A stretch of DNA of 64,000 bases, taken from Anaerolineae bacterium (GTDB lineage Bacteria; Chloroflexota; Anaerolineae; S140-20). The translations under genes and the position numbers were made by a program. The notes beneath the pieces were generated by a model. The model had not been told where the DNA came from and ran no database searches. It worked only from the letters and a program-made list of their open reading frames with translations. Where the stretch lies: positions 1-64,000 of the forward strand of contig JALUTT010000099.1 in assembly GCA_027021705.1 (NCBI GenBank), in the 5' to 3' direction. How positions within the stretch are numbered: position 1 is the stretch's first letter; every line of letters starts with the position of its first letter. This document shows, piece after piece, positions 20,835 to 43,646 of the stretch.

Positions 20835-21947
20835 CTACCCCTCGACGCCCTCTACCGCCTGCAGGGGCAGGAAGCCCTGACCCAGGACCTCCTGCACCGG
20901 CGAGACGATGACGAAGGCGTGGGGGTCCTCATCGCCGACCAGGGCCTTGAGCTGCGGAACCTCGGTGACGGTCAGGGCACACATCAGGACGGCGTGGGCC
21001 TGCCCGGTGTACATCCCGGTGCCGGTCAGCGCGGTCACCCCCCGCCGCATGTCGCGCAAAATGCGGTCGGCGATGGCCTGGGCCCGGTCGGTGACGATGA
21101 AGGCCAGAAACTGCCGGCGACGCCGGCTGGGTCGAAGCCGGGCATCCCACCGACCGGAGGACCGGTGTTGGGGGGCAGTCCCATTCCCAAGCCCGTCGGG
21201 CAGCGGCACCAAGGCGTAGCGAGGCAGGACCTCGCCGGTCGCGTGCTGGAGCCCTACCGTGAGCAGGCCGATCAGCATCAGGAGGCCGTTGAAGATCACC
21301 CCCACCGTCAGGACCAGCCAGCCGGGCAGCCCGCCGATGGCCCCTCGGGCGATCAGTTCCGACCAGGAGGTCGCCACAGTGGGGTGCAGCAGGACCTTCG
21401 CCAGCCAGGCCAACCCCAGCACCAGGTAGATCCACATGTAGTTGCGCCGGTAACGCCGTCCGAAGGCTTCCCACATCGAGATGGGGAAGTCGGGGTGCAG
21501 CAGGTTCTCGGCCAGGCTCTCGGCCCAGTCGGGAGCCGGACGGAAAGGAGGCACCAGCATCGCGCCGAAGAAGTCCGTCTCCATCAGCCGCACCCGGTAG
21601 CTCCACAGCTCGTAGTAGCGGTAGCGGCGGGCCTCGATGAACAGGAAGAGGGTGACCAACAGCGTGTTCAGGATGATGACGCTGTGGTGACCAAGGCTCT
21701 GGCTGAAGGCGAAGGTGATGGTCGCTCCGGTGGTGACGACGGCCCAGTTGGTGGTGGCGTCCAGCCGCTGCCGCCAGACATTGGCCCGGGTGATCTCGGC
21801 CCGGAAGAGGTGGACCATCGCCGTGGTGAACTCGCTGGGCCGCAGCCGGTAGCCCCGGTAGGTCCACACCGGCTCCGTCTCTGCTCCGCGTCCTCGCTTC
21901 TGCTCTCGGCTCTCCTCCTTCAGTGCCATTGTGCCGCTGGTGACCAT
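20835..21947 (-). CDS. DUF2270 membrane domain fused to a C-terminal DUF2179-like domain
   Basis: WRQRLDATTNWAV and EARRYR motifs; C-terminal RGVT...G.GMYTG...DPHAF...V.EVLGQGF. Confidence 0.75.
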   Translation of the reverse strand: MVTSGTMALKEESREQKRGRGAETEPVWTYRGYRLRPSEFTTAMVHLFRAEITRANVWRQRLDATTNWAVVTTGATITFAFSQSLGHHSVIILNTLLVTLFLFIEARRYRYYELWSYRVRLMETDFFGAMLVPPFRPAPDWAESLAENLLHPDFPISMWEAFGRRYRRNYMWIYLVLGLAWLAKVLLHPTVATSWSELIARGAIGGLPGWLVLTVGVIFNGLLMLIGLLTVGLQHATGEVLPRYALVPLPDGLGNGTAPQHRSSGRWDARLRPSRRRRQFLAFIVTDRAQAIADRILRDMRRGVTALTGTGMYTGQAHAVLMCALTVTEVPQLKALVGDEDPHAFVIVSPVQEVLGQGFLPLQAVEGVEG

Positions 21948-21957
21948 CCGATCGCCG

Positions 21958-24729
<2,772 letters not shown>

Positions 24730-24853: not shown

Positions 24854-26428
24854 TCAACTATTCGGCACGTGCTGGGGAGCCATAACAAAAGCCCACTCAT
24901 AGGCCAGCAGGCCGGCGAGGGTGAGCAGGGCGGCCAGGCCCAGGGCGATAGGCACCCCTCCCCCCAGGGCGATCAGCAGCAGCGGCAGCCCCATCCCCAG
25001 CAATAAGCTGCCCCAGTAGTGCCGCCGGTAGGGGCCGTGGGTGATGAGGTGGGCGGCGGCGGCGGCAACGCTGCTGGCGTGGAGGACGGCGAACTCCCCG
25101 CCCAGGGTGATGGCCAGGTTGACCAGCAACCCTCCGGCCAGGCTCCGGCGCAGGACGGTGAGGGCGGGGGCCGGCGGGTTGAAGGCGAGGGCCAGCAGGA
25201 GGAGGGTCGCGGCGCCGGCCGTCAGCCCCTGGACGAAGAGGTGCCAGGAGAGCAGGGGGCTCTGCCACAGGTCTCGCCCTTCGGCCTGGGCGAAGAGGAA
25301 GGCGGTGTAGACGGCCGAGAGCCCGGCCAGGAGGACGCCGGCCCAGGTCAGCAGCGGGTGGGTGAGCGGTGGCACCCGCAGCAGGTGGCCCAGGAACCAG
25401 AGCCCGCCCACCGCCGAGAAGCCGATCAGGATGAAGGCCCCCCGGGCCAGCCAGGAGCGCCACTGGGGGCGGATCAGGATGGTCCAGAAGCGCTCCGGGC
25501 GCTCCAGGTCCCACACCAGCAGGCCGGTGGTCAGGCCGACGAAGAGGAGGGCGACGAAGGCGGCGACGGTGGTGAAGAGGGGGATGGCGGGGAGGAGGCC
25601 CAGGGCGACACCGGCCGCAGCCAGGATGAAGGTACCCGTGCCGATGGCCTTGGTGGTCAGGTAGGCGGGCACCTGCCAGTGCCAGGGGATCTTGTGGGCG
25701 ACGTTGTAGACCTCGCGGGGCCGGGCCGCCGAGGCCACCAGCGCATCGGCCATCCGGTGGGGGCTGATCTGGATGGGGCCGCGCCAGCCGTCGTGGGGGT
25801 TGCCGGCCCCGTCGTGGGCCAGGGCCGGGTGCTCCGCCCACAGCATCCGTCCGTCGGTCTGGGCGGCCATCGGCACGATGGCGCTCTCCTCGGCCTCGAT
25901 GTAGAAGAGCTTGGGGCGGGTGCCCTGCTCCGGCTTGCGCACCCGGACGCGCTGGGAGGCCAGCAGGCGGGCCACCTCGCCGTCGGGGTCGTCCAGGTCG
26001 CCGACGATGATGGCCTGTTCCGGGCAGACGACGACGCAGGCCGGGGCCAACCCCATCTCGATGCGGTGGGCGCAGAAGTGACACTTGGCGGCGGTGCGGG
26101 TCTCGGGGTCTATGTAGATCGCGTCGTAGGGGCAAGCCTGCATACAGGCTTTGCAGCCGATGCAGCGGGCCGGGTCGAACTCGACGATGCCGTCAGACCG
26201 CTGGTACATCGCGGCCACCGGGCAGATGCGCACGCAGGGCGGGTTGGCGCAGTGGTTGCAGCGGGTCACCTGGAAGAAGCGCCGGGTGTGGGGAAACTGC
26301 CCCTTCTCGACGTACTTCACCCAGGTGCGGTAGACGCCCAGGGGCACGTTGTTCTCCGCCTTGCAGACCGTGGAACAGGCGTGACAGCCGATGCACTTGC
26401 GGTGGTCAATGACGAAGGCCAGGTTCAT
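24854..26428 (-). CDS. Fused 4Fe-4S (PsrB/NrfC-like) and NrfD/PsrC-like membrane anchor subunit
   Basis: CIGCHAC, CNHCANPPCV..CP, CIGCKACMQACPY, KCHFC; then DLERPERF, SWLARGA and multiple TMs. Confidence 0.9.
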   Translation of the reverse strand: MNLAFVIDHRKCIGCHACSTVCKAENNVPLGVYRTWVKYVEKGQFPHTRRFFQVTRCNHCANPPCVRICPVAAMYQRSDGIVEFDPARCIGCKACMQACPYDAIYIDPETRTAAKCHFCAHRIEMGLAPACVVVCPEQAIIVGDLDDPDGEVARLLASQRVRVRKPEQGTRPKLFYIEAEESAIVPMAAQTDGRMLWAEHPALAHDGAGNPHDGWRGPIQISPHRMADALVASAARPREVYNVAHKIPWHWQVPAYLTTKAIGTGTFILAAAGVALGLLPAIPLFTTVAAFVALLFVGLTTGLLVWDLERPERFWTILIRPQWRSWLARGAFILIGFSAVGGLWFLGHLLRVPPLTHPLLTWAGVLLAGLSAVYTAFLFAQAEGRDLWQSPLLSWHLFVQGLTAGAATLLLLALAFNPPAPALTVLRRSLAGGLLVNLAITLGGEFAVLHASSVAAAAAHLITHGPYRRHYWGSLLLGMGLPLLLIALGGGVPIALGLAALLTLAGLLAYEWAFVMAPQHVPNS

Positions 26429-26494: not shown

Positions 26495-27565
26495 TCACCG
26501 GCTCGTCGCCGTCAGGACCGCCGTGGCGAAGTCGTCGGGGGCGACGCCGGGAGACTGGATGCGCAGCGCCCGGTAGACCTCCTGGAAGCGGGCGGTCAGC
26601 GCCTCGCGGGTGACGCTCAGCCCCCGGGCGGCCTGCTCCAGCGCCCCAACGGCGAAGGCCGGCAGCAGCGTGAAGTCCCCCGAGATCACCAGATCGTCTA
26701 TCCGCTTCTCCCGCAACCGCACCGTCACGCGGATCAACCCGCCGGGGGCCTTGAAAGCGGCCTCGACCACCCGCACGTCGGCGTGAATCTTCACCCCGAT
26801 CTGGCGCAGCCCGCCCTTCTGGTAGAGCCACTCGTCGGAGACGAACCGGGCATCCAGCTCCTGGGCGGCCGCCTCCTCAGCCTCCGTCCACTCGCCCGGC
26901 ACGACCTCTACGCCTAGGGCCTCGGCGCAGCGGGCGACGTAGAGCGCCTTCACCTCCTCCCGGTCCGGTACCTCCCCCAGCTCCTCCGCCATCGTCGTCA
27001 TGTACCGCTCCAGGCTCTCGAAGACCTTGTCCCGCATCTTCTCCGACGGAACCTTGAGCACCCGGGCCATCGTCGCCTTGTCGAAGGTGAACATCAGGCT
27101 GCCGACGACCACCTCGGCCTGGCCGATCTGAGCCGCCCCGGTGCCGCCGATCTTCTTGCCGTCCACGTGGATGTCGTTGATGGGCCGGTGGTAGACGGCG
27201 ATGCCCAGGGCGCGGTAGGTCTCCACCAGGGGGCGGATGTAGAGCTCAAACCGCTCCTCCAGGGAGGCCGGCAGGCGATCCCGGTGGAAGATCCACTGGG
27301 TGAAGACCTGCCCGTCGTCCAAGTAGACGGCCCCACCGCCCACCTCCCGACGCAGGACGGGGAGGTCGTGGGCCCGGCAGTAGTCCAGGTCCACCTCCTT
27401 CTCCAGGTCCTGGTGGTAGCCGATGCAGACGTAGGGGCGGTTGGGGCTGACCAGGATGATGGTGTCGGGGGTCTCCTCCGTCATCGCGTAGGCGACGGCG
27501 TGGTAGACGGTCTGGGAACGGAGCGGTGAGACAGAACCTAGGTCGAGTAAACGGATAGGGTTCAT
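26495..27565 (-). CDS. Lipoate:protein ligase (sLpl(AB)-like)
   Basis: RREVGGGAVYLD, NDI..DGKKIGGTG, KAPGGLIR, ISGDF. Confidence 0.9.
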   Translation of the reverse strand: MNPIRLLDLGSVSPLRSQTVYHAVAYAMTEETPDTIILVSPNRPYVCIGYHQDLEKEVDLDYCRAHDLPVLRREVGGGAVYLDDGQVFTQWIFHRDRLPASLEERFELYIRPLVETYRALGIAVYHRPINDIHVDGKKIGGTGAAQIGQAEVVVGSLMFTFDKATMARVLKVPSEKMRDKVFESLERYMTTMAEELGEVPDREEVKALYVARCAEALGVEVVPGEWTEAEEAAAQELDARFVSDEWLYQKGGLRQIGVKIHADVRVVEAAFKAPGGLIRVTVRLREKRIDDLVISGDFTLLPAFAVGALEQAARGLSVTREALTARFQEVYRALRIQSPGVAPDDFATAVLTATSR

Positions 27566-27593: not shown

Positions 27594-28040
27594 TCACCCC
27601 ACACATCGAAAACACCGCACCCCCAACTCGTCAATGCGGGCCATGTACCGGCGCACGGCCTCCTCACCAGTGACCAGGTGGCCTCCCTCGGCCTCCAGAT
27701 CGAGGGGGCGCACCTTGACCAACCAGCCCGCGCCGTAGGGGTCCTTGTTGGCCAGCAGGATGTCCTGGGCAAAGGCCGCCTCGTTGGTCTCAACAATCTC
27801 GGCGGTGAAGGGAGCGGGGAAAGGCCCCACCCACTTGCCGCTTTCGAGGGTCGCCAACGCCCGGCCCTGCCGCACCACCCGCCCCACCCGCTTGAAGCGG
27901 ACGGCCACCAGCTTGCCGCAGCGGGTCTGGGCGGCATCGGTCATCCCCAGGACGGCGATCTCCCCCTCGAAGCGGATCCAGACATCCCGGTCCACGTCGT
28001 AGTAAAGTTCTTCAGGGATGGCACAGCCGTAGTAGATCAT
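27594..28040 (-). CDS. lbpA: Lipoate-binding protein (GcvH-like), copy 3
   Basis: LESGKWVGP lipoyl-Lys motif, N-terminal Cys and C-terminal CFRC. Confidence 0.82.
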   Translation of the reverse strand: MIYYGCAIPEELYYDVDRDVWIRFEGEIAVLGMTDAAQTRCGKLVAVRFKRVGRVVRQGRALATLESGKWVGPFPAPFTAEIVETNEAAFAQDILLANKDPYGAGWLVKVRPLDLEAEGGHLVTGEEAVRRYMARIDELGVRCFRCVG

Positions 28041-28057: not shown

Positions 28058-28495
28058 TCAGGCGCAGGAGATGCCTTCGGACTCCAGGAACCGGCGGTAG
28101 GCTTCGACCCCCTCGGCGCCGGTCACCAGGTCCTTGCTCTCCGTCTCCCAGTCGGCGGGCTTGATGCGGGCGAACCAGCCGGCCCCGTAGGGGTCCTCGT
28201 TGATCAGGCCGGGGTTGGCCTTCAACGTCTCGTTCACGGCCACGATCTCCCCCGTGACGGGGGTGGTGACCGGACCGACCCACTTGCCGCTCTCCAGCGT
28301 GCCGGCGCTCCGCCCGCGCTTCAGCTTCCGCCCCACCTTCTTGGGCGTGACGTTGATGATACCCTTGGCCAGGTGCTGGGCCACGTCGGTGATGCCGATG
28401 GTGACGGTGCCGTCCTCCTCGGGGCGGGCCCAGACGTGCTTCTCCGGCCAGTAGTAGAGGTCCTCGGGAATGTGACAGTTGTTGATCTCGGCCAT
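28058..28495 (-). CDS. lbpA: Lipoate-binding protein (GcvH-like), copy 2
   Basis: LESGKWVGP, N-terminal C..PEDLYY and C-terminal Cys. Confidence 0.88.
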   Translation of the reverse strand: MAEINNCHIPEDLYYWPEKHVWARPEEDGTVTIGITDVAQHLAKGIINVTPKKVGRKLKRGRSAGTLESGKWVGPVTTPVTGEIVAVNETLKANPGLINEDPYGAGWFARIKPADWETESKDLVTGAEGVEAYRRFLESEGISCA

Positions 28496-28752: not shown

Positions 28753-30750
28753 CTACACCCCACAGGCCTCCGCCACCAGCCGCGCGATGTCCACTACCTC
28801 GATCTTCCCCTCGTACCCCGTCGTCTTCACCGCGTCGCTGTACATTGCCATATCCTTGGGGCAGGCGACGACGAAGTACCGGAGGTCCTCGCCCAGGGCG
28901 GCGGCCTCACGGATGCGTTGTTCGCTGGGGCGCTCCCCCGTCGCCGTGTCCATCCAGATGCGTCCTCCGCCGGCCCCACAGCAGAAAGTGTTCTCCCGGC
29001 AGCGGGGCATCTCCCGGAAGTCCACGCCCAGGGCCCGCAGGATGCGCCGGGGAGCCTCGATGACGCCGTTGTAGCGGCCCAGGTAGCAGGGATCGTGGTA
29101 GGTGACGACGGCCTCCAGGCGGCGGGCCGGCTTCAGCCGACCCGACTCCAGCAGGTCGGCCAGGACCTCGGTGTAGTGGTAGACGGGAACCTCCAGCCCG
29201 TAGGCCCGGTACTCGTTCTTCAGGGCGTTGTAGGAGTGGGGGTCGGTGGTGACGATGGCCTGAAACTGGGCCTTGCCCAGCACCTCCATGTTGTGCTCGA
29301 CCAGCATCTCGAAGAGCCCTTCCTCCCCCACCCGGCGCACGTCGTTGCCGGCGTTCCGCTCCCCCTCGTAGAGGATGCCGAAATCCAGGCCGGCCCGGTG
29401 GAAGAGCCGGGCTACCGTCTGGGTGTTCTCCTGCATCCGAGGGTCGTAGGAGGCGAAGTCTCCCACGAACCAGAGGTACTCCACGGGCTCCTTGCGGGCG
29501 TCTTTGATCTTGAAGTCCAGCCCCTTCTTCGCCCAGCGGGCCCGTCGGCGGGCCGGCTTGTTGAAGGAATTGCCCTGGCGCATAAAGCTCTCCAGCGCCG
29601 CCTGGAGGTTGGGGTCCAGCTCATCCCCCTGGTAGATGAGGTGACGGCGGATCTCCACGATGTCCAGCATCGGGCGGTTGCCCACCGGGCAGATGTGCAC
29701 GCAGGCGTAGCAGGTGGTGCAGGCCCAGACGGCTTCCTTGGAGATGGCCATCTCCAGGAGCGGCGGCGGGTTCAACTGCCCCGAGGCGAAGGCGGCCAGG
29801 TTTTTGTTGAGGAAGTAGCGCTTGTTGATCTCCAGGGCGGCCGGGCTAAGGACCTGGCCGCTGCTGTGGGCCGGGCAGACGTCCTGGCAGCGGTTGCACA
29901 TAATGCAGGCGTAGGCGTCCAAGAGCTGATACCAGCGCAGGTCCTGGAGGTGCGCGGCCCCCTCCCCGTCGCGGGTGGGTGGGTCCAGCCGGCCCCGGGG
30001 CTGCTCCTCCCGCAGGATCCAGTTGATGGGCGCGATGAAGAGGTGGATGTGCTTGGAGTAGGGGAAGTAGGGCAGGAAGAGGAGGATGAGCCCCAGGGCC
30101 AGCCACCAGGTGACGTGGACGCCGAGGGTGAGGGTCCCCTCGGGGAGGCCGCCGAGGGCGAGGGCGACCAGGCTGGCGGTGGGCTGGGCAGGGTCGGCGC
30201 GACCGGCCTCGGCGATGCGGAAGGCTTGGCCCAGCCAGCGGGAGCCCACGTGCAGGAGGATGAAGAGCCCCACGATGAGGGAGTCGCGGGGGATGCCTCG
30301 GGGCACTTCGGGCCGCAGCAGGACGCCGGGGTTGAAGCGGAAGGGCTTGAGGCCGAAGCGCCGGATGAGCAGGGCGGCCATCCCGATCAGCCCGCCGACG
30401 CTGATCAGGTCGGCGATCAAGTTGTACAGCCCCAGCAGCCCCCCCCGGTGCAGGGTGCTGAAGCCCACGAACCCCTCGGCCAGGTCCAGGATGTTGACCA
30501 GGCCGTAGAAGGTGAAGGCGAAGAAGACAAGGGCGTGGAAGAGGCTGGCCCACGGTCGGGTGCGGAAGATGGGCCGCTGGAGCAGGATGTTCAGGCTGAC
30601 GGGGATCACCCGGCGCAGGAAGAGGCCCAAGGGGGGCGATCCCTCCCCCCGCGCGACGACGCGGTAGATGCGGTAGAAGCCCTGGGCGGCCAGCCCTCCG
30701 CAGACCAGGGCCAGCAGGATGAAGGCGAGGCGTTCCAACGGTGTAAGCAC
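28753..30750 (-). CDS. Membrane Fe-S oxidoreductase, EMO/HdrF/FadF-like (cytochrome b-like + 2x4Fe-4S + CCG)
   Basis: N-terminal TMs with His residues (SKHIH), CIMCNRCQDVCP, CTTCYACVHICP, YHDPCYLGR, CCGAGGG. Confidence 0.88.
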   Translation of the reverse strand: MLTPLERLAFILLALVCGGLAAQGFYRIYRVVARGEGSPPLGLFLRRVIPVSLNILLQRPIFRTRPWASLFHALVFFAFTFYGLVNILDLAEGFVGFSTLHRGGLLGLYNLIADLISVGGLIGMAALLIRRFGLKPFRFNPGVLLRPEVPRGIPRDSLIVGLFILLHVGSRWLGQAFRIAEAGRADPAQPTASLVALALGGLPEGTLTLGVHVTWWLALGLILLFLPYFPYSKHIHLFIAPINWILREEQPRGRLDPPTRDGEGAAHLQDLRWYQLLDAYACIMCNRCQDVCPAHSSGQVLSPAALEINKRYFLNKNLAAFASGQLNPPPLLEMAISKEAVWACTTCYACVHICPVGNRPMLDIVEIRRHLIYQGDELDPNLQAALESFMRQGNSFNKPARRRARWAKKGLDFKIKDARKEPVEYLWFVGDFASYDPRMQENTQTVARLFHRAGLDFGILYEGERNAGNDVRRVGEEGLFEMLVEHNMEVLGKAQFQAIVTTDPHSYNALKNEYRAYGLEVPVYHYTEVLADLLESGRLKPARRLEAVVTYHDPCYLGRYNGVIEAPRRILRALGVDFREMPRCRENTFCCGAGGGRIWMDTATGERPSEQRIREAAALGEDLRYFVVACPKDMAMYSDAVKTTGYEGKIEVVDIARLVAEACGV

Positions 30751-30765
30751 GATCTCCCTCCGTGA

Positions 30766-30847: not shown

Positions 30848-30874
30848 TGCTGTAGCCAACGAGGGGAAAGGCCG

Positions 30875-31159
30875 ATGATCATCACGCTTGAGCCAGAGCT
30901 CGAGAGAGCCCTGACCGAAAAGAGCCGTGAATTGAACTCGACGCCGGAGGCGCTCGTGGCCCGGCTCGTCCTGCTCTTTGTGGAAGGCCGGCTGCTCCTC
31001 CCCGAATCGGAACTGGCCGAAGGTATCACCGTGGAAGAGTACCTCCGTCTGACCGATGCCGAGGAAGCCGCTCTGTGGGAGCGCTGGTCTGAAGAAGCCC
31101 GCAAGCAAGTCTCCTCCATCGTTGCCGAGGCCAGTTCCGATGCGCTACCTCCTGGATAA
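30875..31159 (+). CDS. Putative antitoxin
   Basis: Small acidic protein with RHH-like start MIITLEPELERAL, overlapping the next gene. Confidence 0.6.
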   Translation: MIITLEPELERALTEKSRELNSTPEALVARLVLLFVEGRLLLPESELAEGITVEEYLRLTDAEEAALWERWSEEARKQVSSIVAEASSDALPPG

Positions 31160-35603: not shown

Positions 35604-35662
35604 CGCGGCTCCCAGGGCTCGTGCGGGCCGGTGATCGGTCCGGGCCGGGCAGGGCCGAGGGG

Positions 35663-36715
35663 TCACCCGGCGCGGCGGAGGGTGGCGATGGCCCGGGCGG
35701 CAGCCAGCCCGGCCATCGAGAAGGAATCGTCCAGGTCGGCGGGTCCGGCGGCGGCCCCGGCGACGAAGATGCCGGGCCGGGAGGTGGCGACGGGGTCCAC
35801 ACCCGTCGGTCCGCCGGCGGCGATGTAGCCGTACTTGTTCTGCTCCAGCCCCAGGAGCCCCGCCATCGCCCGGGTGCCGGTGCTGGGCTCCATCCCGACG
35901 GAGAGGACCACCAGGTCCACCGTCACCTCCATCGGCCGGCCCATCGTCGTGTCCTCGCCCCGGATGAGGAGCCGGTCTCCCTTGGGCAGGATCTCGCTCA
36001 CCAACCCCTTGATGTAGTTGACCTTGTACTGTTCCTGGGCCGGCCAGTAGAGTTCGTTCTCCCAGTAGCCGTACATCCGCATGTCAATGTAGAAGATGAA
36101 GACCCGGCTGTCGGGCAGGAGCCGCTTGATCTCGATGGCCTGCTTGCTGGCGATGCCGCAGCAGACCTTGGAGCAGAACTCGTTGCCGATCTGCCGGTCC
36201 CGGGAGCCGACGCACTGGATGAAGGCGACCCGCTCCGGCGTCTCCCCGTTGGAGGGCCGGACGACCTGGTGAGCCCTCAGCATCCCCTCCAGATCGGCGA
36301 TGGTGATGACGTCGGGGAAGGAGTAGTAGTTGTAGTACTGGGTCTCCCGACCGGGGTCGAAGTGCTGAAAGCCGGTGGCGACGATGATGGCCCCCGCTTC
36401 CACCGTCTTGGGGCCGGCCCCGTTCTGCACCGTCACCCGGAAGTTCCCCGCCTCACCCTCACAGGCCACCACCTGGCTGTCGGTGAGCACCTCGACGTTG
36501 GGGTTGTCGGTGATGGCGGCGACCAGCTCGGCCATCACCTCTCCGGCATCCCGAAAGTGGTGGGTAAGCTGGGCGTAGTGAACGGCGTCGGGGGTGCCGC
36601 CGAGGCGGTCTCGTTTTTCCACCAGGACGACGGGGTAGCCCAGATCGGCCACCGTGCGGGCCGCCTCCAGGCCGGCCGGCCCCCCTCCGATGATCAACAC
36701 CTTGCCTTGAGACAT
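35663..36715 (-). CDS. shdrA: sHdrA flavoprotein subunit
   Basis: GGGPAG, CVGSRDRQIG..CSKVCC, FYIDMR; short, with no ferredoxin insertion. Confidence 0.85.
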   Translation of the reverse strand: MSQGKVLIIGGGPAGLEAARTVADLGYPVVLVEKRDRLGGTPDAVHYAQLTHHFRDAGEVMAELVAAITDNPNVEVLTDSQVVACEGEAGNFRVTVQNGAGPKTVEAGAIIVATGFQHFDPGRETQYYNYYSFPDVITIADLEGMLRAHQVVRPSNGETPERVAFIQCVGSRDRQIGNEFCSKVCCGIASKQAIEIKRLLPDSRVFIFYIDMRMYGYWENELYWPAQEQYKVNYIKGLVSEILPKGDRLLIRGEDTTMGRPMEVTVDLVVLSVGMEPSTGTRAMAGLLGLEQNKYGYIAAGGPTGVDPVATSRPGIFVAGAAAGPADLDDSFSMAGLAAARAIATLRRAG

Positions 36716-36765: not shown

Positions 36766-37989
36766 TCAAGCGGCCACGGCGATGGGCGTGTCGGCATCCT
36801 CCCAGGTCAGGCCCGCCTTCTCGCCCCGCCGGATGGCGTCCAGGTCGGCCTCGAACTCCTCCCAGTGGCGCTGCCAGTCAATGCCCAGCTTCTCCAGCAT
36901 CGGACGCCAGTCGGTCGAGTGCCAGTGAAGCTGAAGGACGCGGAAGGGGTGGGCCCCCATCGCCAGGGCCGCCACCTGGGCGTCGGAGAGGACGGGCACG
37001 CCGACCTGGCGCTGGTGGGCCTTGGCGGCGAACTGGCTCTTATCCAGCGTCGTCACGCAGCCGGTATCGTGAGTCACCACCAGGTCGGGGTCCACCTCGT
37101 TCTTCATCACCTCGATCTTGCGCAGGACGGCGAAGGAGCGGGTGAAGTCCCGCTGGACCAGGACGTGGCGGAAGCCGAAGCCGCAGCAGTCGAACCAGGT
37201 GGAGTAGTCGGCCACGTGGATGCCCAGGGTCTCCAGCAGGCCGGTGACCGTCGCCGTGCGCTGCCCGCCGTAGATGTCGGGGTCGTAGATGGCATCCTCG
37301 GCCACGATCTTGTAGTAGTGACAGGCGGGGTGGACGCAGGCCGTCAGGCTGCTCAGGTCCACGATCTGGCGCTCGGCGATGCGGTGGCGCATGGCGTGCA
37401 CCCACTCGCTGTAGTGGACGATCTCCTCAGGGACGACGAGGGGCTTGCCCAGCTTGTCCAGGATGCGCCGCACCTCGTCCCGCAGCGCCTTGTGGTGGAT
37501 CAGCTCCTCACGGGCCTCCTTGTAGTGGCCGTAGCTGGTGCCGCAGTGGATGAGGGGGTAGTAGCCCGTCTCGTAGGCGGCGGCGAAGTTGCGGCACATC
37601 ACGGCCAACTGGGCGGCGGCGTTGGAGGTGGCCGAGGCGTAGTAGTTCCAGCCGGTGCACGAGGTCTGGTCCGTGGGGTCCACGTAGTCCAGCCCGAACT
37701 GGCGGTGCAGCCAGAAGACAGAGGTGGAGTAGCCGGGGATGTGGCCGCACTGGCCGCAGGACTTGTGGTGCCAGGTGTGCTCGACGGGGATCTTCTTGGT
37801 GCGACCGAACTTGGTGGTGACCTCGATGTAGGGTTCCGGCACCCGCTGCACGATCAGCTCCCCCTTCGCCTCCAGCTCGAAGAGGGCTTCGCGCAGGTCG
37901 TGGGTCGGCGCCGTGGTCGGATCGCGGCGGACCGGCTGGGATTTCTTGGCCAGGATCTCCTCGACGGGAACGAAGTTCGCTGTCGCCAT
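36766..37989 (-). CDS. shdrB1: sHdrB1 subunit
   Basis: KSCGQCGHIPGY, DQTSCTGWNY, HPACHYYK, WFDCCGFGFRH, DTGCVTTLDKSQ. Confidence 0.88.
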   Translation of the reverse strand: MATANFVPVEEILAKKSQPVRRDPTTAPTHDLREALFELEAKGELIVQRVPEPYIEVTTKFGRTKKIPVEHTWHHKSCGQCGHIPGYSTSVFWLHRQFGLDYVDPTDQTSCTGWNYYASATSNAAAQLAVMCRNFAAAYETGYYPLIHCGTSYGHYKEAREELIHHKALRDEVRRILDKLGKPLVVPEEIVHYSEWVHAMRHRIAERQIVDLSSLTACVHPACHYYKIVAEDAIYDPDIYGGQRTATVTGLLETLGIHVADYSTWFDCCGFGFRHVLVQRDFTRSFAVLRKIEVMKNEVDPDLVVTHDTGCVTTLDKSQFAAKAHQRQVGVPVLSDAQVAALAMGAHPFRVLQLHWHSTDWRPMLEKLGIDWQRHWEEFEADLDAIRRGEKAGLTWEDADTPIAVAA

Positions 37990-38696
37990 CAGACTTCCTC
38001 CTCCCATTCCTCCAGCTCTTCTTCCATCACATCCACCAGGAGCTCGTAGAGCCCTTCGTCCACCTCCTGGATGATCTCGATGTTGCCGGTCTCGAACCAG
38101 ATGGTGTAGAGTTCGCGCAGCGTCTTGTCATCGGTGCGCCAGGCGGCGTCGGTGACGCCCCGCAGGGTGTCCACGGGGATCGCCTGCCGCCAGACCTGCA
38201 TGTTCTCGCTGAACTCCCGCACCCAGGGCCCCCAGTCGGGGAAGAAGTCGGGCTGGAGCATGTCGGGCGAGACCTGGTTGCCCTTGAGCATCACCTTGTA
38301 GATCACCCGGCTGTAGCCCTGGAGGACATCGCGGGTCTCCTGGATGCCGTTGCGCACGGCAACCTCCCGGATCAGCGTGACCAGGCCGCCGGGGTTGTTG
38401 TGGCGGGGGCAGCGGACGCAGGAGAAGCACTGGGCGCAATTCCAGATGTCCTCGATGAGGATTTCGTAGATGCGGTCCACATCCTCGCGGGCCATCGCCT
38501 GGGCAATGACGCGGGGGCTGTAGTCGTAGAAGCGGGCCGAGGGGCAGGCGGAGACGCAGATACCACACTCGTAGCACCCGTAGAGGTAGTCCTCGTAGCG
38601 AGGGTCCTCTTTGATCTCCAGGAAGAGGCGCTGTTTTTCCTCATAAGGAACGTCGGGATACCTGTCCACAACCTTGCCGGGGTTCCAGTCGGTCAA
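37989..38696 (-). CDS. shdrC1: sHdrC1 ferredoxin subunit
   Basis: CYECGICVSACP, IWNCAQCFSCVRCPR.NNPG, PDWGP. Confidence 0.85.
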   Translation of the reverse strand: MTDWNPGKVVDRYPDVPYEEKQRLFLEIKEDPRYEDYLYGCYECGICVSACPSARFYDYSPRVIAQAMAREDVDRIYEILIEDIWNCAQCFSCVRCPRHNNPGGLVTLIREVAVRNGIQETRDVLQGYSRVIYKVMLKGNQVSPDMLQPDFFPDWGPWVREFSENMQVWRQAIPVDTLRGVTDAAWRTDDKTLRELYTIWFETGNIEIIQEVDEGLYELLVDVMEEELEEWEEEV

Positions 38697-38712: not shown

Positions 38713-38797
38713 CTAATACCTCATCAAACGGGTTTTGACAAACCGTTGATGGGGTAGTGGTTTCCCGTCCGTTCAATCCACTCTCAAGTCCGCTGAC
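38713..38797. repeat. Family C element (CGGATT/TTTGATGAGGTA), single-arm copy
   Basis: Reverse complement aligns ungapped over 85 bp with 61122-61206 (about 20 mismatches by eye); internal hairpin. Confidence 0.75.
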
Positions 38798-39068
38798 CGA
38801 TGTCCGTTCTAGCCCGGCTCCTCGCCTGGGCGAGGGCTTCAACCATCGCGTCCCAGGGAGGGACGCCGACGAAGCGGGTGGAGCCGACGAAGACGGTGGG
38901 GACGGAGAGGACCTGAGCAGCCTTGGCCTCCTCCCGGCCTCGGGCGCTGCCTAGGCTGACGATGCGCAACCGGACGTCGGGGTTCTCGTCGGCCAGGCGC
39001 TGGGCCAGGCGGATGGCGGTGGGGCAGGTTGTGCAGACGGGATGGGTGAAGACACGCACTTCGATCAT
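38784..39068 (-). CDS. Thioredoxin/glutaredoxin-like protein
   Basis: CTTC, SVPT, RFVGVP. Confidence 0.82.
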   Translation of the reverse strand: MIEVRVFTHPVCTTCPTAIRLAQRLADENPDVRLRIVSLGSARGREEAKAAQVLSVPTVFVGSTRFVGVPPWDAMVEALAQARSRARTDIGQRT

Positions 39069-39093
39069 CGTCCTCAACAGGGGAGGGTCACGG

Positions 39094-39567
39094 CTACGGC
39101 ATCTCGAACCCTTCGCAGTGGACGCAATCGTCCAGCCCCTTCTGGGCCATCAGGGCCTCGTAGGCGGCGACGGCGGCCTCGCCGGTGATCAGCCGGCTCA
39201 GGTCGGCCTCCAGGTCCTCCGGTTGCAAGCGGGCGATCCAGCCCCGGTTGTAGGGGCTGCGGTTGATGAGGCCGGCATCCTGGGGGAGGGCATCGTTGAC
39301 GGCGATGAGGGTGCCGGCGACGGGGGTGCGCAGCGGTCCCAGCCACTTGGCGCTCTCGACCAGGGCCACGACCTTGCCCCGGGGGTAGAAGCGGCCCACG
39401 GGACGGTAGGAGACGTGGAGCATCCCGCCGGCCGTGGTCTGGGCCACGTCGGTGAAGCCCAGCGTCACGCTGCCGTCGGGCTCCGGGCGGACCCAGATAT
39501 GGTCCTCAACCCGGTAGTAGAGGTCCAGGGGCAGGACGCAGTTGCGGACGATGGCTACCCGGCCCAT
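39094..39567 (-). CDS. lbpA: Lipoate-binding protein (GcvH-like), copy 1
   Basis: VESAKWLGP, N-terminal Cys, C-terminal CVHC. Confidence 0.85.
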   Translation of the reverse strand: MGRVAIVRNCVLPLDLYYRVEDHIWVRPEPDGSVTLGFTDVAQTTAGGMLHVSYRPVGRFYPRGKVVALVESAKWLGPLRTPVAGTLIAVNDALPQDAGLINRSPYNRGWIARLQPEDLEADLSRLITGEAAVAAYEALMAQKGLDDCVHCEGFEMP

Positions 39568-39569
39568 CG

Positions 39570-39950
39570 TCAGAAGGCCACCACCGCATCCGCTTCCAGG
39601 GCCATGTCGTTGAAGGCCGCCCCGCCGATCATCTCCACGCCGTCAATGAGGTCGTCCATCGTCAGGCCGTGCAGGTCCAGGGAGGGCTGGCAGACGTAGA
39701 GCTTGACCCCGACGGCGAGGGCCTGTTTGATGAAGTGGGCCAGGGGAGCGCCGCCCCCACCGGCCTTGGGCACGATGAGCTCTTCCGGGACGCCCTTGCG
39801 CAACAGGGTGGGGCCGTTCATCGTGAAGTAGATGCCGGCCTCGATGTCCATCGCTGCCGCAGCCGCAGCCAGGAAGAAGGGGGTCGCGCTGCGCTCCGGC
39901 GTGTCCACACCGTGGGTCTGCACGTAGAGAATCTTCTTGTCCTCGTCCAA
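39570..39950 (-). CDS. DsrE-family sulfur carrier (DsrE3-like)
   Basis: TPFFLAAAAAAM, GVKLYVCQPS; TTG start after GGAGGT. Confidence 0.8.
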   Translation of the reverse strand: MDEDKKILYVQTHGVDTPERSATPFFLAAAAAAMDIEAGIYFTMNGPTLLRKGVPEELIVPKAGGGGAPLAHFIKQALAVGVKLYVCQPSLDLHGLTMDDLIDGVEMIGGAAFNDMALEADAVVAF

Positions 39951-40016: not shown

Positions 40017-40523
40017 CTAGACGAAGAGGCTGACATCGGCTTCGGCGGCGAAGTCCAGGAAACCGGTAGCTCCCAGGCAGGAGACCCCTTCGATGAGGTC
40101 CTCCTGGGCCACGTTCATCACCCCCATCGTCGTGGCACAGGCGTAGAGGTTGACCCCCATCTCCACGCACATCTCCACCATCTCGGCAACGGTAGGGATG
40201 TTGGCCTTCTGCATCCAGCTCCTCATAAAGCTCGTCGCCAGCTCCGTCATGCCCGGGAGCATCCCGACGATGTTGGGCACCTGGAGGGGGATGGCGGGGA
40301 TGGGGGCGGGCATCGCCGGGTTGCCGATGGGGGCGACCTTGAGCTTGGCCAGCTTTTTCTTGTTGATGATGTCGAGGCCGTAGAAGGTGAAGAAGATGCC
40401 CACCTCCCAACCGATGGCGGCGGCGGTGGTGGCGAGGATGAGGGGAGGGTAGGCCATATCCAACGAGCCCTTGGACGCGACCAGGGCCAGACGACGCCGG
40501 CGGGGCTTCTGTTCCTCGGTCAT
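40017..40523 (-). CDS. DsrE2-like (DsrE/DsrF/DrsH) sulfur transferase
   Basis: SKGSLDMAYPPLILA, FFTFYGL, YACATTM. Confidence 0.85.
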   Translation of the reverse strand: MTEEQKPRRRRLALVASKGSLDMAYPPLILATTAAAIGWEVGIFFTFYGLDIINKKKLAKLKVAPIGNPAMPAPIPAIPLQVPNIVGMLPGMTELATSFMRSWMQKANIPTVAEMVEMCVEMGVNLYACATTMGVMNVAQEDLIEGVSCLGATGFLDFAAEADVSLFV

Positions 40524-40623
40524 GGGCAAACCTCCTTCGACGGGATAGGCATCCTCCGGCGGCCGGCCTCTCGCCGGTCCGGGTGATGGGGCCCGCGAGG
40601 GCAGGCGACCAGAGGGCCGGGGC

Positions 40624-40866
40624 CTACTGGGCACGCCGGATGTAGAAGACGAAGGTACCGTCCTCTTGCTCGCTGGCCAGCAGCTCGTTGCCCGTCTGCT
40701 TGGCCCAGGCTTCCATATCGGCCGGCGCGCCGGGGTCGGTGGCGATCATCTTCAGGACCTGACCGACTTCGATCTCCTTGATCGCCTTGGAGGTTTTGAT
40801 GACGGGGATGGGGCACAGGAGTCCGGTGCAGTCCAGCACCTTGTCCGCCGCAATTGAGGTGGTCAT
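40624..40866 (-). CDS. tusA: Sulfur carrier protein TusA
   Basis: LDCTGLLCPIP, TDPGA..D. Confidence 0.92.
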   Translation of the reverse strand: MTTSIAADKVLDCTGLLCPIPVIKTSKAIKEIEVGQVLKMIATDPGAPADMEAWAKQTGNELLASEQEDGTFVFYIRRAQ

Positions 40867-40987: not shown

Positions 40988-41046
40988 GACCATGATTCAG
41001 GCAGCCAGACCTGCTTCTATGGTAAACCGGTCGGCCAGAATTGTCG

Positions 41047-41085
41047 TCCCCCTTGGGGGGGAATTGGCTTCCCCCCTAGAGGGTA
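41047..41085. promoter_or_regulatory. Tandem TCCCCC-N4-GGGGGA boxes, putative NarL/LuxR operator
   Basis: Perfect box 41047-41062 and degenerate box 41070-41085 in the divergent intergenic region. Confidence 0.55.
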
Positions 41086-41251
41086 TTTCTCGCCTCCCCG
41101 CGCCGGGGTTCCGCTTGCGCGTTGCTGCCCCTCTGGCTGCCGGCCGGGCGCTGAACTGGGCAGAGGCGCAACTGAATTGCGCCCCATCCGGCGTCCCATC
41201 CCTGGCCTGGGTGCGGAAAGTGGGTTATAATTCCCTCAAGAGGAGAGGGCT

Positions 41252-42994
41252 ATGGGGCTCAACCTGAAGGGACTCACCCAGCAGCAGCGCGTCTTCCTGT
41301 TCCTCGTCGCTTACCGATGGGCCAGTCTGTTGCCCGCCCTGTGGGTCTTCCACCCCCGTAACCCAGACGCGCCGATCCCGCTGGCCGGCATCCTGGCGCT
41401 GGCGGCCGGCATCACCCTGTCGGTGACCGTCTTCCACCGGCGTCTGAACCGCCTGCTGATCCGGCATCCCTACATCCTGGGAGCGGATATGGTCCTGGCG
41501 GCGGCCATCCTGGGGGTCAGCGGAGGGGCCCACAGCCCCTACTACCTGTACGCCCTGAGCCCGCTGCTGGCCGGCGCCTTCTTCTTCCAGATGCGGGGGG
41601 CCATCGCCGCCGCCGCTGCTTTCACCCCCCTCTTCCTCCTCGCCACCGCCCTGGGGTACCACCTGCACAGGCTCTCCATCACCCCCCAGACCTTCATCAC
41701 TCAGATGGCCGGCCTCTGGCTCATCCCCCTCCTCTTCGGCTATCCCTCGGTGCTGCTGAAACGGCTGCGGCAGGCCCATCACGCGCTGCAGGAGGCCCGT
41801 GACGATCTGGCCCGCCAGAACGTTGAACTGAACGCCGCCCACCGCCAGTTGCGGATCATCCACGACCTGACCGTCTCCCTCCAGGCCGCCCCCGACATCC
41901 AGTCCGTCCAGCAGCGGGTGCTCCAGGCCGTCACGGGGGAACTGGGCTTCCCTCGCGCCGTCGTCGGCCTGGTGAATCCGATGTTGCAACGGCTGGAGAA
42001 CTGGCGGGCCTATCCCCAAGACGAGAGGCCACCGGGGCCGGTGGCCCCGCTCCCCCTACACCCTCGAAGCGGCCTGCTGGTGCAACAGCTTCTGGATCGC
42101 CAACCCTTTCAGTGGGCCGAGGGACCGGCACTGACCACAGACGAGGCGCTGAACCGATGGTTGGGACCGGGCCCTTGGCTCATCCTGCCCCTGGTGCTGC
42201 GGGAACACCCGGTTGGCCTCCTGCTGGTCGCTCTGGAAGCGCCCTTGATCTCCCTGCCTGAAGAGCGCCTGGCAATGCTGACCTCGGTGGCCGGCCAGGC
42301 CGCCGTCGCCCTGGGCACGACGATGCTGTGCATAGACCGGGCCTGGCGGCTGGCGGTGGAGCAGGAGCGGAACCGGATCGCCCGCGACATCCACGACACC
42401 GTGGCCCAGTCCCTCTTCGGCATCGTCTTCACCCTGGATGCATGCACCAAGATGCTGCCGGAGCAGGTGGAGAAGGTGCAACAGGAGCTGGTGGAACTGC
42501 GAGACCTGGCCAGTCGGGTGCGGGACCAGGTGCGCCAGTCCATCTTCGACATCTGGCCCTCGACGCTGACGCTGGAACGGTTCAAGGCCGACCTGCGCAA
42601 GTACGTGGCCCATTGCAGCCGCCCCCGGGCCTTCCACGTGGACTTCCGCACCGGCGGCGATTTCGACCGGCTGTCACCGGCCATCCGGCGCAGCCTCTAC
42701 CGGGTGGCGCAGGAGGCCCTGGCCAACGTCGTCCGCCACGCCGGGGTGAACTCGGCCCAGGTCTGCCTCCGGGTGGAGCCCAACGCGGTCTACCTGAGCA
42801 TCCGGGATCACGGACGGGGCTTCGATCCGGCGACGGTGCTGGCCCGGGAGCACAACCGGGAGCGTTTCGGCCTGCGGGGGGTCCGGGAGCGCATTCACGC
42901 CTTGGGGGGGGAGTGTGAGATCCTCAGCCGCCTGGGCGAGGGCACCCAGATTCTGGTCCGTCTACCGGTCAACGGGAGGGATGGCCGTGGGTGA
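41252..42994 (+). CDS. Membrane sensor histidine kinase (GAF, HisKA_3, HATPase)
   Basis: TMs, GAF-like region, ERNRIARDIHD, QEALANVVRHA, DHGRGF. Confidence 0.92.
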   Translation: MGLNLKGLTQQQRVFLFLVAYRWASLLPALWVFHPRNPDAPIPLAGILALAAGITLSVTVFHRRLNRLLIRHPYILGADMVLAAAILGVSGGAHSPYYLYALSPLLAGAFFFQMRGAIAAAAAFTPLFLLATALGYHLHRLSITPQTFITQMAGLWLIPLLFGYPSVLLKRLRQAHHALQEARDDLARQNVELNAAHRQLRIIHDLTVSLQAAPDIQSVQQRVLQAVTGELGFPRAVVGLVNPMLQRLENWRAYPQDERPPGPVAPLPLHPRSGLLVQQLLDRQPFQWAEGPALTTDEALNRWLGPGPWLILPLVLREHPVGLLLVALEAPLISLPEERLAMLTSVAGQAAVALGTTMLCIDRAWRLAVEQERNRIARDIHDTVAQSLFGIVFTLDACTKMLPEQVEKVQQELVELRDLASRVRDQVRQSIFDIWPSTLTLERFKADLRKYVAHCSRPRAFHVDFRTGGDFDRLSPAIRRSLYRVAQEALANVVRHAGVNSAQVCLRVEPNAVYLSIRDHGRGFDPATVLAREHNRERFGLRGVRERIHALGGECEILSRLGEGTQILVRLPVNGRDGRG

Positions 42995-43646
42995 GGAACG
43001 CATCCGCATCCTGATCGTAGACGACCACGCCATCGTGCGCAAGGGGTTGGCGATGGTGCTCCGGCTGGAGCCCGACTTCGAGGTGGTGGGGGAGGCGGAG
43101 AACGGGCGCAGGGCCATCGAGTTGGCCCGGGCGCTGCGCCCTGACCTGGTGCTGCTGGACCTGAAGATGCCGGGGATGGACGGCGAGGAGGTGGCCGCCG
43201 CGCTGCGGGCCAACCTCCCCAACGTCCGGCTGCTGGTGCTGACGGGCATGGAGCTGGACGAAGGGCTGGTGGACACGCTGGCGGCCGGCGTGGACGGCTA
43301 CATCCTGAAGGACGTAGAACCCGATGAGTTGGCCCAGGCCATCCGGGCGGTGGCCCGGGGCGAGGCCTACCTGCACCCGGCGGTGGCCCGGCGGCTCCTG
43401 GACCGGCTGGCGACCCGACCGATGGCCCCGCCCCCTCCTGCTGCCCGCCTCACCCCCCGCGAGCTGGAGGTGCTGCGCTGGATGGCGACGCCGGCCACCT
43501 ATCGGGAGATCGCCGAGCACCTCGTCGTCAGCGAGGAGACGGTGCGCAGCCACGCCAAGCGGATCCTGAGCAAGCTCCAGCAGCCCAACCGGGCCCAGGC
43601 GGTGCTGGCGGCCGTGCGGGCCGGCCTCATCGAACTGCCGGAGTAG
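42981..43646 (+). CDS. NarL/LuxR-family response regulator
   Basis: IVDDH, LLDLKMP, GYILK, LTPRELEVL HTH. Confidence 0.93.
   Translation: MAVGEERIRILIVDDHAIVRKGLAMVLRLEPDFEVVGEAENGRRAIELARALRPDLVLLDLKMPGMDGEEVAAALRANLPNVRLLVLTGMELDEGLVDTLAAGVDGYILKDVEPDELAQAIRAVARGEAYLHPAVARRLLDRLATRPMAPPPPAARLTPRELEVLRWMATPATYREIAEHLVVSEETVRSHAKRILSKLQQPNRAQAVLAAVRAGLIELPE

Follow-up and report, generated by a model that had tools for sequence, protein, structure and literature searches.

The 64,000-nt stretch of DNA analyzed here (the window) belongs to contig JALUTT010000099.1 of an Anaerolineae bacterium (GCA_027021705.1). At positions 20835-43646 it carries a gene cluster for sulfur metabolism, in which a type II sHdr system with lipoate-binding proteins (LbpA) is followed by the genes of a membrane-anchored molybdenum (Mo) enzyme. 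Our main finding is that this Mo enzyme, which has a fused iron-sulfur (FeS)/NrfD subunit, is conserved beside type II sHdr clusters. The window has a GC content of about 67%, and as a result mechanical lists of its open reading frames (ORFs) are crowded with overlapping false frames. We chose minus-strand genes by codon-position (third-position) GC and assigned protein families with Pfam and NCBIfam. Third-position GC resolved a single minus-strand gene run from 40866 to 20835 and two plus-strand genes at 41252-43646. The order on the minus strand is tusA-dsrE2-dsrE3-lbpA-trx-shdrC1B1AHB3-etfBA-emo-lbpA-lbpA-lpl-(FeS/NrfD fusion)-Mo subunit-DUF2270 (Table 1). Pfam matched 19 of the 21 candidate proteins, the two without a match being sHdrH and a spurious 130-aa ORF. 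NCBIfam agreed with the Pfam picture, and all of its Hdr, Psr, Phs, Ttr and Dms models scored far under their curated cut-offs. The third lbpA and the true start of lpl were hidden in longer mechanical ORFs.

We found every gene named in an earlier reading of this DNA (the original prediction), in the order and at the positions it gave. Its coordinates are exact, because converging housekeeping genes bound the cluster sharply at both ends, with nadE ending at 20830 and an MFS transporter gene ending at 43653. The divergent two-component pair was also confirmed, by Pfam, as a histidine kinase and a NarL-type response regulator. The run that had been described as co-oriented stands for the minus-strand genes; it is broken, however, by an insert on the opposite strand between etfA and emo.

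Table 1. Genes and other features of the cluster, with coordinates in the window and the evidence for each.
Feature	Coordinates	Strand	Evidence
Sensor histidine kinase	41252..42994	+	Membrane N-terminus, then Pfam GAF, HisKA_3 (2.6e-16) and HATPase_c
NarL-type response regulator	42915..43646	+	Pfam Response_reg 5.5e-27 and GerE 1.4e-15; start likely at 42981
Conserved GC-rich dyad element between regulator genes and tusA	41061..41110	-	Alignment of window, L002 and L023
tusA, sulfur carrier, first operon gene	40624..40866	-	Pfam TusA 2.4e-25; Cys18 in CPIP
dsrE2-type sulfur transferase	40017..40634	-	Pfam DrsE_2 2.8e-43; NCBIfam SulfCarrDsrE2 175 bits, cut-off 210; true start likely Met38, about 40523
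dsrE3-type sulfur transferase	39570..39950	-	Pfam DsrE 1.1e-19; 42-77% identity to same-position gene in L002, L005, L006, L007 and L023
lbpA1, lipoate-binding protein	39094..39567	-	Pfam GCV_H 1.8e-29; ESAK, candidate lipoyl-lysine Lys74
Small thioredoxin-fold protein (trx)	38784..39077	-	Pfam Thioredoxin_3 6e-6; CTTC, CxxC at residue 15; also in L023, 65% identity
shdrC1, ferredoxin-like subunit	37989..38696	-	Pfam Fer4 families; HdrC models under cut-offs; 51-85% identity across 6 related loci
shdrB1, CCG-domain, proposed catalytic subunit	36766..38007	-	Pfam CCG 2.7e-9; CCG motif at residue 274; 67-83% identity in related loci
shdrA, short FAD/FeS flavoprotein, 368 aa	35663..36769	-	Pfam Pyr_redox_2; PDB 6TJR 3.4e-90, residues 24-362
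shdrH, conserved hypothetical of shdr clusters	34809..35666	-	Position and conservation; no family match in Pfam or NCBIfam; same position in 7 loci, 28-70% identity; last 43 residues at L003 start, 81%
shdrB3, type II marker subunit	33462..34742	-	Pfam Fer4 and CCG; two CX2CX2CX3C motifs (residues 60, 102), one CCG motif (residue 350); 62-89% identity in 8 loci
etfB	32634..33404	-	Pfam ETF 1e-26
etfA	31643..32608	-	Pfam ETF and ETF_alpha
Opposite-strand insert, not part of the pathway	30875..31706 (ORFs 30875-31159, 31137-31706)	+	94-aa ORF and overlapping 189-aa PIN-like ORF
emo, ETF:(methyl)menaquinone oxidoreductase-like membrane FeS protein	28753..30750	-	Hydrophobic N-terminal segments, then Fer4 and CCG
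lbpA2	28058..28495	-	Pfam GCV_H 1.6e-37; ESGK motif
lbpA3	27594..28040	-	NCBIfam GcvH subfamily 6.4e-30; ESGK motif
Lipoate:protein ligase (lpl), LplA-like and LplB-like parts in one protein	26495..27538	-	Pfam LplA-B_cat 2.4e-40; NCBIfam lipoyltrans 2e-39; LplB small subunit over residues 262-344
Fused four-cluster FeS and NrfD-type membrane anchor	24854..26428	-	Fer4_11 residues 51-144, NrfD 242-519
Catalytic Mo-bisPGD subunit, 923 aa	21958..24729	-	Pfam Molybdop_Fe4S4, Molybdopterin and Molydop_binding
DUF2270 membrane protein with C-terminal PII-like DUF2179	20835..21947	-	Pfam DUF2270 3.8e-62, DUF2179 3.3e-18

By the definition of Tanabe et al. (2024, PMC11094781; this and the other papers are cited from the accessible part of each), a type II system has shdrC1B1AHB3 and the electron transfer flavoprotein (ETF) genes etfAB in a single syntenic cluster, accompanied by emo. 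A genome scan with an sHdrB3 alignment and generic CCG-domain patterns gave 71 loci among the matches listed, a scope that holds for all locus counts below; loci that were fetched carry L numbers. At least 10 of them are pieces of type II clusters (L001-L007, L018, L023 and L060), and the other 61 of the 71 hold paralogous CCG/EMO proteins. In the window, shdrC1, B1, A, H, B3 and etfAB form an unbroken run from 38696 to 31643, in which neighboring genes are spaced by -19 to 66 nt, and the same core gene order was found in L002, L004, L005, L006 and L023. The sHdrB3 protein fuses a C2-like ferredoxin part to a B2-like part and has one CCG site. The gene for the ETF:(methyl)menaquinone oxidoreductase-like protein (EMO) lies beside etfAB in the cluster, and its product starts with a membrane part, after which come the Fer4 and CCG domains. 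The carriers are also there: three GCV_H proteins with an ES(A/G)K motif, an LplA-type ligase, TusA, DsrE2 and DsrE3. The short sHdrA has as its best solved structure the Hyphomicrobium denitrificans sHdrA (306 bits), whereas the five methanogen HdrA chains listed reached 171-221 bits, mainly over residues 122-365, the C-terminal two thirds. Against methanogen-type HdrABC and Flx-Hdr, the HdrA models scored 201-269 bits versus cut-offs of 1100-1400, the protein has 368 aa versus about 650 for the long HdrA, which carries extra ferredoxin domains, and the HdrB and HdrC models of NCBIfam were far under their cut-offs as well.

We placed the EMO protein in a quick maximum-likelihood tree of 55 EMO-like rows, made by a short search without a mixture model and leaving out L018, which has a partial gene, and L060. 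The window EMO grouped with the EMOs of the Chloroflexota sHdr loci L023, L002 and L003 (SH-aLRT 95), and this group was nested in an eight-row clade (SH-aLRT 100) that also holds one archaeal sHdr locus. The EMOs of sHdr loci do not form one clade, as two group with another family and the tree needs three label changes. The well-supported clade that holds the window EMO and others from sHdr loci also takes in EMO-like proteins of the Chloroflexota loci L064, L050 and L052, although etf and shdr genes are absent for 10 kb around them. Gene content and synteny therefore agree with the published definition, as the original prediction of a type II core had it, and neither of the outcomes that it had named as telling against such a core was observed: sHdrA is not of the methanogen type, and the EMO does not fall in a clade outside sHdr.

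The core has close counterparts in published catalogs. Table S1 of PMC11094781 covers 130 type II genomes, among them many Anaerolineae (a name that appears 42 times) and Thermomicrobium roseum. DsrE2, TusA and DsrE3A are usually present in its Anaerolineae rows, most of which the DsrE2/TusA/DsrE3 set of the window matches. Justice et al. (2014, PMC4378227) reported this layout from every Sulfobacillus genome under the name Hdr cluster II. The type also corresponds to Group III of Cao et al. (2018), and the T. roseum genes trd_0160-0142 are a member of it. The window shares with these clusters shdrC1B1AHB3-etfAB-emo, TusA, DsrE2, DsrE3, two or three LbpAs and a lipoate ligase. It also shares sHdrA, sHdrB1, sHdrC1, sHdrH, the need for LbpA and the TusA/DsrE relay with the type I systems of H. 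denitrificans and Aquifex aeolicus; unlike the window, however, type I has sHdrC2 and sHdrB2 instead of the fused sHdrB3, and neither EtfAB nor EMO (PMC11094781). Because of the Anaerolineae and T. roseum rows in PMC11094781, the T. roseum cluster (PMC6776052) and the Sulfobacillus Hdr cluster II (PMC4378227), we conclude that the core is an already catalogued kind of system, type II sHdr-LbpA.

The window differs from other type II clusters in having Mo enzyme genes at the 3' end of the operon, and the accessible parts of the type II cluster literature mention no Mo enzyme inside the cluster. We compared the flanks of the type II pieces. The contigs of L001, L004 and L007 stop before the relevant flank, leaving seven of the ten pieces assessable. 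The fused FeS/NrfD gene adjoins the type II cluster in all seven and was found in none of the 61 paralogue loci; the sample is small, because only 10 of the 71 loci are true type II pieces. The seven linked loci are from Chloroflexota (L002, L003, L006 and L023), Acidimicrobiia (L018) and archaea (L005 and L060). The position of the fusion gene varies among them: it is downstream of lpl in L002, L003, L018 and L023, directly after emo in the archaeal L005 and L060, and divergent from tusA in L006. Five of the seven loci also show the Mo subunit, and L003 stops 248 nt past the fusion gene. In L060 (6822-11700), two radical-SAM genes, a ligase gene and a gene for an FAD protein follow the Mo gene and resemble lipS1-lipS2-lpl-lipT; the Mo genes there lie inside the sHdr system, since they stand between emo and these genes. 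In L005, a gene of the TauE/SafE sulfite-exporter family (19200-20027) comes after the Mo gene. The paralogue locus L065 has an unrelated Mo enzyme (27% identity). We conclude that a Mo enzyme with a fused FeS/NrfD subunit is conserved beside type II clusters, and this linkage is the new part of our finding. The Mo enzyme had been taken as a peculiarity of this genome, a view that does not hold because the linkage recurs in three phylum-level groups. We found no published description of a linkage between the Mo enzyme and type II sHdr in the literature covered; Kümpel et al. 2024, which lies outside it, may mention the Mo enzyme.

A second gene group was observed in L008-L014, L020, L034 and L041, from Verrucomicrobiota, Planctomycetota, Bacteroidota-like and Chloroflexia genomes. 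It mostly consists of an sHdrB3-like protein (44-50% identity), etfBA, emo and an HdrA-like protein (32-38%), with L011 and L041 each one short. None of these loci has sHdrB1, TusA or LbpA, and L008 has a weak sHdrC1-like match (25%). The group is probably another Etf/EMO-linked oxidoreductase.

The catalytic subunit of the Mo enzyme, which is of the molybdenum-bis(pyranopterin guanine dinucleotide) (Mo-bisPGD) kind, begins with a four-Cys FeS motif and has no twin-arginine (Tat) signal. Among its best 120 homologues, a loose Tat-like motif precedes the FeS motif in only 2 and is absent from the other 118; a clear Tat motif was seen in a remote homologue from Azoarcus (33% identity). The N-terminal FeS domain of the fusion has no signal peptide, and an Arg-rich loop follows its second membrane helix. 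Since the lack of export signals and the Arg-rich loop fit a cytoplasmic FeS domain, the enzyme appears to be built like Psr, Phs and Soe but to face inward. The FeS domain and the Mo subunit are thus predicted to lie on the cytoplasmic side of an NrfD-type membrane module, as had been proposed. Cys173 of the Mo subunit is kept in 125 of 126 aligned family members, the lone exception being an ambiguous residue, and it aligns with the residue of Thermus PsrA that we take to be the Mo-ligand Cys.

The nearest relatives with names are distant. The best named profile of the Mo subunit in NCBIfam is PhsA, whose model gives 185.5 bits where 694 is the cut-off; among solved structures, the Thermus polysulfide reductase PsrA (2VPW, 1.3e-37) matches best. 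The known Psr, Phs and Ttr enzymes are periplasmic and Tat-exported. The window protein scores under the family cut-off and has no Tat signal, and in both respects it departs from Psr and Phs reductases. With Thermus thermophilus PsrABC it shares the Mo-subunit match, the aligned Cys173 and the NrfD anchor; unlike in PsrABC, the membrane and FeS parts are not separate subunits, and the match lies mainly in residues 40-281. Compared with SoeABC, all modules are there, namely Mo-bisPGD, FeS and NrfD, with the latter two fused, and neither the Mo subunit nor the fusion has an export signal. By description, the enzyme is therefore like SoeABC of Allochromatium vinosum and A. aeolicus in its modules, its lack of signal peptides and its predicted cytoplasmic side; it is unlike SoeABC in that the B and C subunits are joined in a single polypeptide, whose gene comes before that of A. 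No Soe match to the Mo subunit was returned by NCBIfam, and the names of its relatives in the protein atlas are generic only. Plasmid contexts of distant homologues found with tblastn were considered as soeABC and rejected for Azoarcus (Tat-exported, with split subunits and a TorD chaperone), Sulfurovum, Thioclava and Novosphingobium. For SAR202 Chloroflexota, the published proposal is Apr/Sat and not SoeABC.

A protein search of plasmid records for the two-gene unit of fusion and Mo subunit identified cultured carriers. Rhodococcus jostii RHA1 has the unit (62.5% identity) on plasmid pRHL3 (L073, record 210270-236969), where a DsrE2-like gene and tusA lie directly before the fusion and Mo genes and Mrp/NBP35 comes after them. 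The surroundings encode three fusions of metallo-β-lactamase and rhodanese domains, an architecture that we take to be that of CstB-type persulfide dioxygenases, as well as a rhodanese, a thioredoxin, two ArsR-type regulators and a CsoR-like regulator. Two DUF202 proteins and an MMPL transporter were also observed in this sulfur-handling group. Haloarchaeal plasmids, including those of Natrinema, carry the unit at 53-56% identity, again with Mrp/NBP35 after the pair. In T. roseum the unit (66% identity) is on the megaplasmid and not within the sHdr cluster, and a CsoR-family regulator gene stands directly before it. The pRHL3 and haloarchaeal groups, for which our literature search found no published characterization, share the fusion gene and the Mo subunit with the window, and in R. 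jostii the link to TusA and DsrE. Unlike the window, they have no sHdr, LbpA or Etf, Mrp/NBP35 stands where the window has the DUF2270 gene, and the R. jostii genes lie in persulfide-dioxygenase-like surroundings. Taken together, the linkage to sHdr and the linkage to DsrE-TusA in R. jostii tie the Mo enzyme to cytoplasmic sulfur trafficking in two independent contexts.

These linkages bear on whether the Mo enzyme is a mere neighbor of the sHdr genes that acts on an unrelated substrate, such as formate or another oxyanion, with the DUF2270 gene and the two-component system also outside sulfur metabolism. Such a reading would account for the database names of relatives, which are 'formate dehydrogenase', 'nitrate reductase' or generic, for the absence of co-induction of the T. 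roseum Mo genes, and for a DUF2270 gene unseen at that position in other lineages. It leaves unexplained why adjacency was found in 7 of 7 type II loci and 0 of 61 others, across three phylum-level groups and in three arrangements, why DsrE and TusA are independently linked to the enzyme in R. jostii, and why regulator orthologues and a shared upstream element recur in L002 and L023. We consider it highly improbable.

We lean, by a little more than an even chance, toward a reading of the whole cluster as an oxidative cytoplasmic sulfur pathway with two quinone-reducing modules, sHdr and a Soe-like Mo enzyme. In this pathway, TusA, DsrE2 and DsrE3 would hand persulfide sulfur to the sHdrC1B1A(H)B3 complex, which would oxidize sulfane sulfur to sulfite together with the three LbpAs, lipoylated by the lipoate ligase of the cluster. 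Menaquinone would receive the electrons from sHdr by way of EtfAB and membrane-bound EMO. The Mo-bisPGD subunit and the FeS/NrfD fusion would then oxidize sulfite to sulfate and reduce a second quinone, as SoeABC does. The operon would be controlled by the membrane-embedded GAF histidine kinase and the NarL-type regulator, probably through the dyad upstream of tusA. Quinone reduction by both modules and the regulatory link of the two-component system to the operon are what we infer from the gene content.

For the first half of the pathway, PMC11094781 describes oxidation of sulfane sulfur to sulfite by sHdr-LbpA, with EtfAB and EMO as proposed carriers to menaquinone; the step to sulfite is the view of the type I literature, which we carry over to type II by analogy. 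For the second half, sulfite, a toxic intermediate, appears by analogy with Soe to be the most likely substrate of the Mo enzyme, with sulfate as the product. SoeABC co-occurs with sulfite-producing cytoplasmic pathways (PMC4378227, PMC12345210), and the Sulfobacillus genomes, all of which have Hdr cluster II, encode signal-less enzymes of the SoeA/SreA branch that were proposed as sulfite oxidizers (PMC4378227). The fate of the sulfite formed by type II sHdr is not addressed in the accessible parts of the literature covered, and a genetically linked Mo enzyme facing the cytoplasm is a concrete candidate for this step.

The Mo enzyme could instead act on another cytoplasmic sulfur species and so feed or complement sHdr, without acting on free sulfite. 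Its substrate would then be thiosulfate, polysulfide, tetrathionate, or a persulfide or thiosulfonate bound to TusA or DsrE; thiosulfate, for example, would be cleaved to sulfite and carrier-bound sulfane sulfur. The best named matches, PhsA and PsrA, and the Cys kept at the PsrA Mo-ligand position are consistent with this. So is the relative of SoeA in Aquifex, which was first described as a sulfur, polysulfide and tetrathionate reductase (cited in PMC4378227). The scores of the PhsA/PsrA-type matches, however, lie far under the family cut-offs. Export also separates the two, since Psr, Phs and Ttr leave the cytoplasm through the Tat system and the Mo family of the window does not. Finally, the TauE neighbor in L005 and the persulfide-dioxygenase-like neighbors in R. 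jostii point to sulfite as a shared intermediate. On balance we regard a substrate other than sulfite as unlikely, though with a real share of the probability.

Several observations weigh against oxidation of sulfite by a Soe-like enzyme as the end of a single sHdr pathway. The nearest named relatives are both remote, and a sulfur-reducing or thiosulfate-handling enzyme fits the sequence equally well. The DsrE2-like and TusA genes directly upstream of the unit in R. jostii are placed as for a substrate carrier, which somewhat favors a carrier-bound substrate. In L023, no Mo subunit was found in the 907 nt past the fusion gene, up to the end of the locus. Because of the etfA-emo insert, the second half of the operon in the window may be transcribed separately from the first. 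The two modules of T. roseum lie apart in the genome and were not co-induced: in the supplement of PMC6776052, the ratio of stationary to exponential expression is 92 for tusA (trd_0160), and on the megaplasmid it is 1.01 for trd_A0628, 1.56 for the fusion gene trd_A0629 and 2.27 for the regulator gene. We assigned trd_A0628 to the Mo subunit by gene order, from its neighbors RtcB (A0625), archease (A0626), the FeS protein (A0629) and the regulator (A0630). Moreover, no type II sHdr system has been characterized biochemically or at the bench according to PMC11094781. The statement in the original prediction that the arrangement is uncharacterized therefore stands for bench work; it does not stand more broadly, because type II in Anaerolineae has been catalogued (PMC11094781) and the T. 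roseum cluster has a transcriptome (PMC6776052).

All 12 organism-labelled matches among the best 120 for the Mo subunit are Anaerolineae, Anaerolineales, Chloroflexota or Ardenticatena, and all 5 among the best 120 for ArgG are Anaerolineae, Anaerolineales or Chloroflexi. The nearest species representative among the matches listed is a 3.3-kb Anaerolineae contig (L001), with 89% identity in sHdrB3. Because all labelled best matches point there, the host belongs to Chloroflexota, as had been suggested, and its class is probably Anaerolineae. Many Anaerolineae are anaerobes, and in an anaerobic host the cluster could run in reverse or disproportionate sulfur, with quinol-driven reduction at the Mo enzyme coupled to oxidation at sHdr. 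Enzymes of the Hdr type and complex iron-sulfur molybdoenzymes are reversible in principle, and no oxidase gene was found in the 64-kb window, which is little informative for the genome. The cultured carriers identified here are T. roseum, R. jostii and haloarchaea. R. jostii and haloarchaea grow aerobically. T. roseum is aerobic too, and its trd_0160-0142 cluster of 19 genes responded to nutrient-limited stationary phase more strongly than any other locus, with a mean induction of about 45-fold in aerobically persisting cells (Islam et al. 2019, PMC6776052). Nothing specific to anaerobes was found in the window. The idea of a probably anaerobic host is thus not borne out, since nothing in the window bears on oxygen and T. 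roseum is an aerobe. We regard reductive or disproportionating operation as improbable and as speculation, and we retain the oxidative reading.

A bolder proposal is that the fusion and the signal-less Mo subunit form an unrecognized family of cytoplasmic sulfur-oxyanion:quinone oxidoreductases apart from SoeABC, which would be the last step both of type II sHdr and of the actinobacterial and haloarchaeal groups for persulfide detoxification. We find this possible and rather doubtful. If it is true, the new family may take its substrate directly from TusA or DsrE, and sulfate would be formed without release of free sulfite. Because the Mo enzyme family is also present in cultured Rhodococcus and Thermomicrobium, its proposed part in the fate of sulfite is testable in culturable strains and not just in uncultured Anaerolineae.

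The two plus-strand genes upstream of tusA encode a two-component system of the NarL/LuxR type, in which a HisKA_3 kinase with four hydrophobic segments in residues 14-134 is paired with a regulator that has REC and GerE domains. L002 shares the divergent arrangement of the window, with tusA facing away from orthologues of both the kinase (51% identity) and the regulator (58%). The regulator orthologue of L023 (53%), inside whose gene the locus begins, is next to tusA and co-directional with it. In L006, the third Chloroflexota locus whose upstream side can be seen, the Mo genes take the place of regulators upstream of tusA, and ArsR-type regulators are found at this position, unlike in the window, in the type II clusters of the archaeal L005 and the actinobacterial L007. 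In L005, an ArsR-type regulator and a rhodanese are encoded at 3419-4213.

Alignment of the regions upstream of tusA in the window, L002 and L023 revealed one alignable part, a dyad block of ~45 nt. It lies at about 4276-4325 in L002 and about 667-716 in L023, and its distance to tusA is 75-125 nt in these two loci and about 195-245 nt in the window. Within the window, its copy was the only hit, against a chance expectation of 0.01. When a scripted pattern was restricted to the L002/L023 form, those two copies alone came up in 1.26 Mb of fetched loci plus the window; this form misses the window copy, which has one base fewer. Rfam has no match to the block, the element upstream of tusA has no sigma-70 or terminator consensus, and folding of the three sequences gave no usable covariation in the main hairpin. 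The dyad block is a candidate operator for the response regulator, or a candidate leader. Together with the dyad that the three loci share, the two-component pair points to a second mode of shdr regulation besides the ArsR-type repressors known for type I.

The gap between etfA and emo is 892 bp (30751-31642) in the window and about 80-180 nt in relatives. The insert that fills it has a lower GC content (0.60) and a coding-like codon-position pattern. Its ORFs matched nothing in Pfam, NCBIfam or PHROGs, and flanking repeats of the mobile-element kind were not found. The clusters of hypothetical proteins into which the 189-aa ORF falls are most frequent in Chloroflexota, and PIN proteins are similar to its Atlas model (TM 0.58-0.60). 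With the overlapping 94-aa ORF, it looks like a toxin-antitoxin pair. IS200-like transposase genes were seen elsewhere in the L002 and L003 clusters.

The DUF2270 gene begins 10 nt past the Mo gene. In a structural model of its product (pLDDT 81), built on 33 aligned sequences, long membrane helices precede a C-terminal domain. This domain matches the solved structures 3HLU (DUF2179) and the PII-like PstA/CutA, whereas no solved structure matches the membrane part. The fusion of DUF2270 to DUF2179 is a minority form, as most of the relatives listed have about 230-250 aa and the DUF2270 part only. In none of L005, L060, T. roseum, R. jostii and Natrinema is the Mo gene followed by a DUF2270 gene; for the close relatives within Chloroflexota, the fetched DNA stops short of this position. 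We do not count the DUF2270 protein as an established member of the sulfur system. That it acts in anion export or regulation is only a guess, made because L005 has the TauE gene in this place.

Outside the cluster, a gene for a TumE-family toxin (17409-17861) with a small upstream ORF (17143-17412) was observed between argG and argJ, and the GC content of this segment (0.56) is under that of its neighbors.

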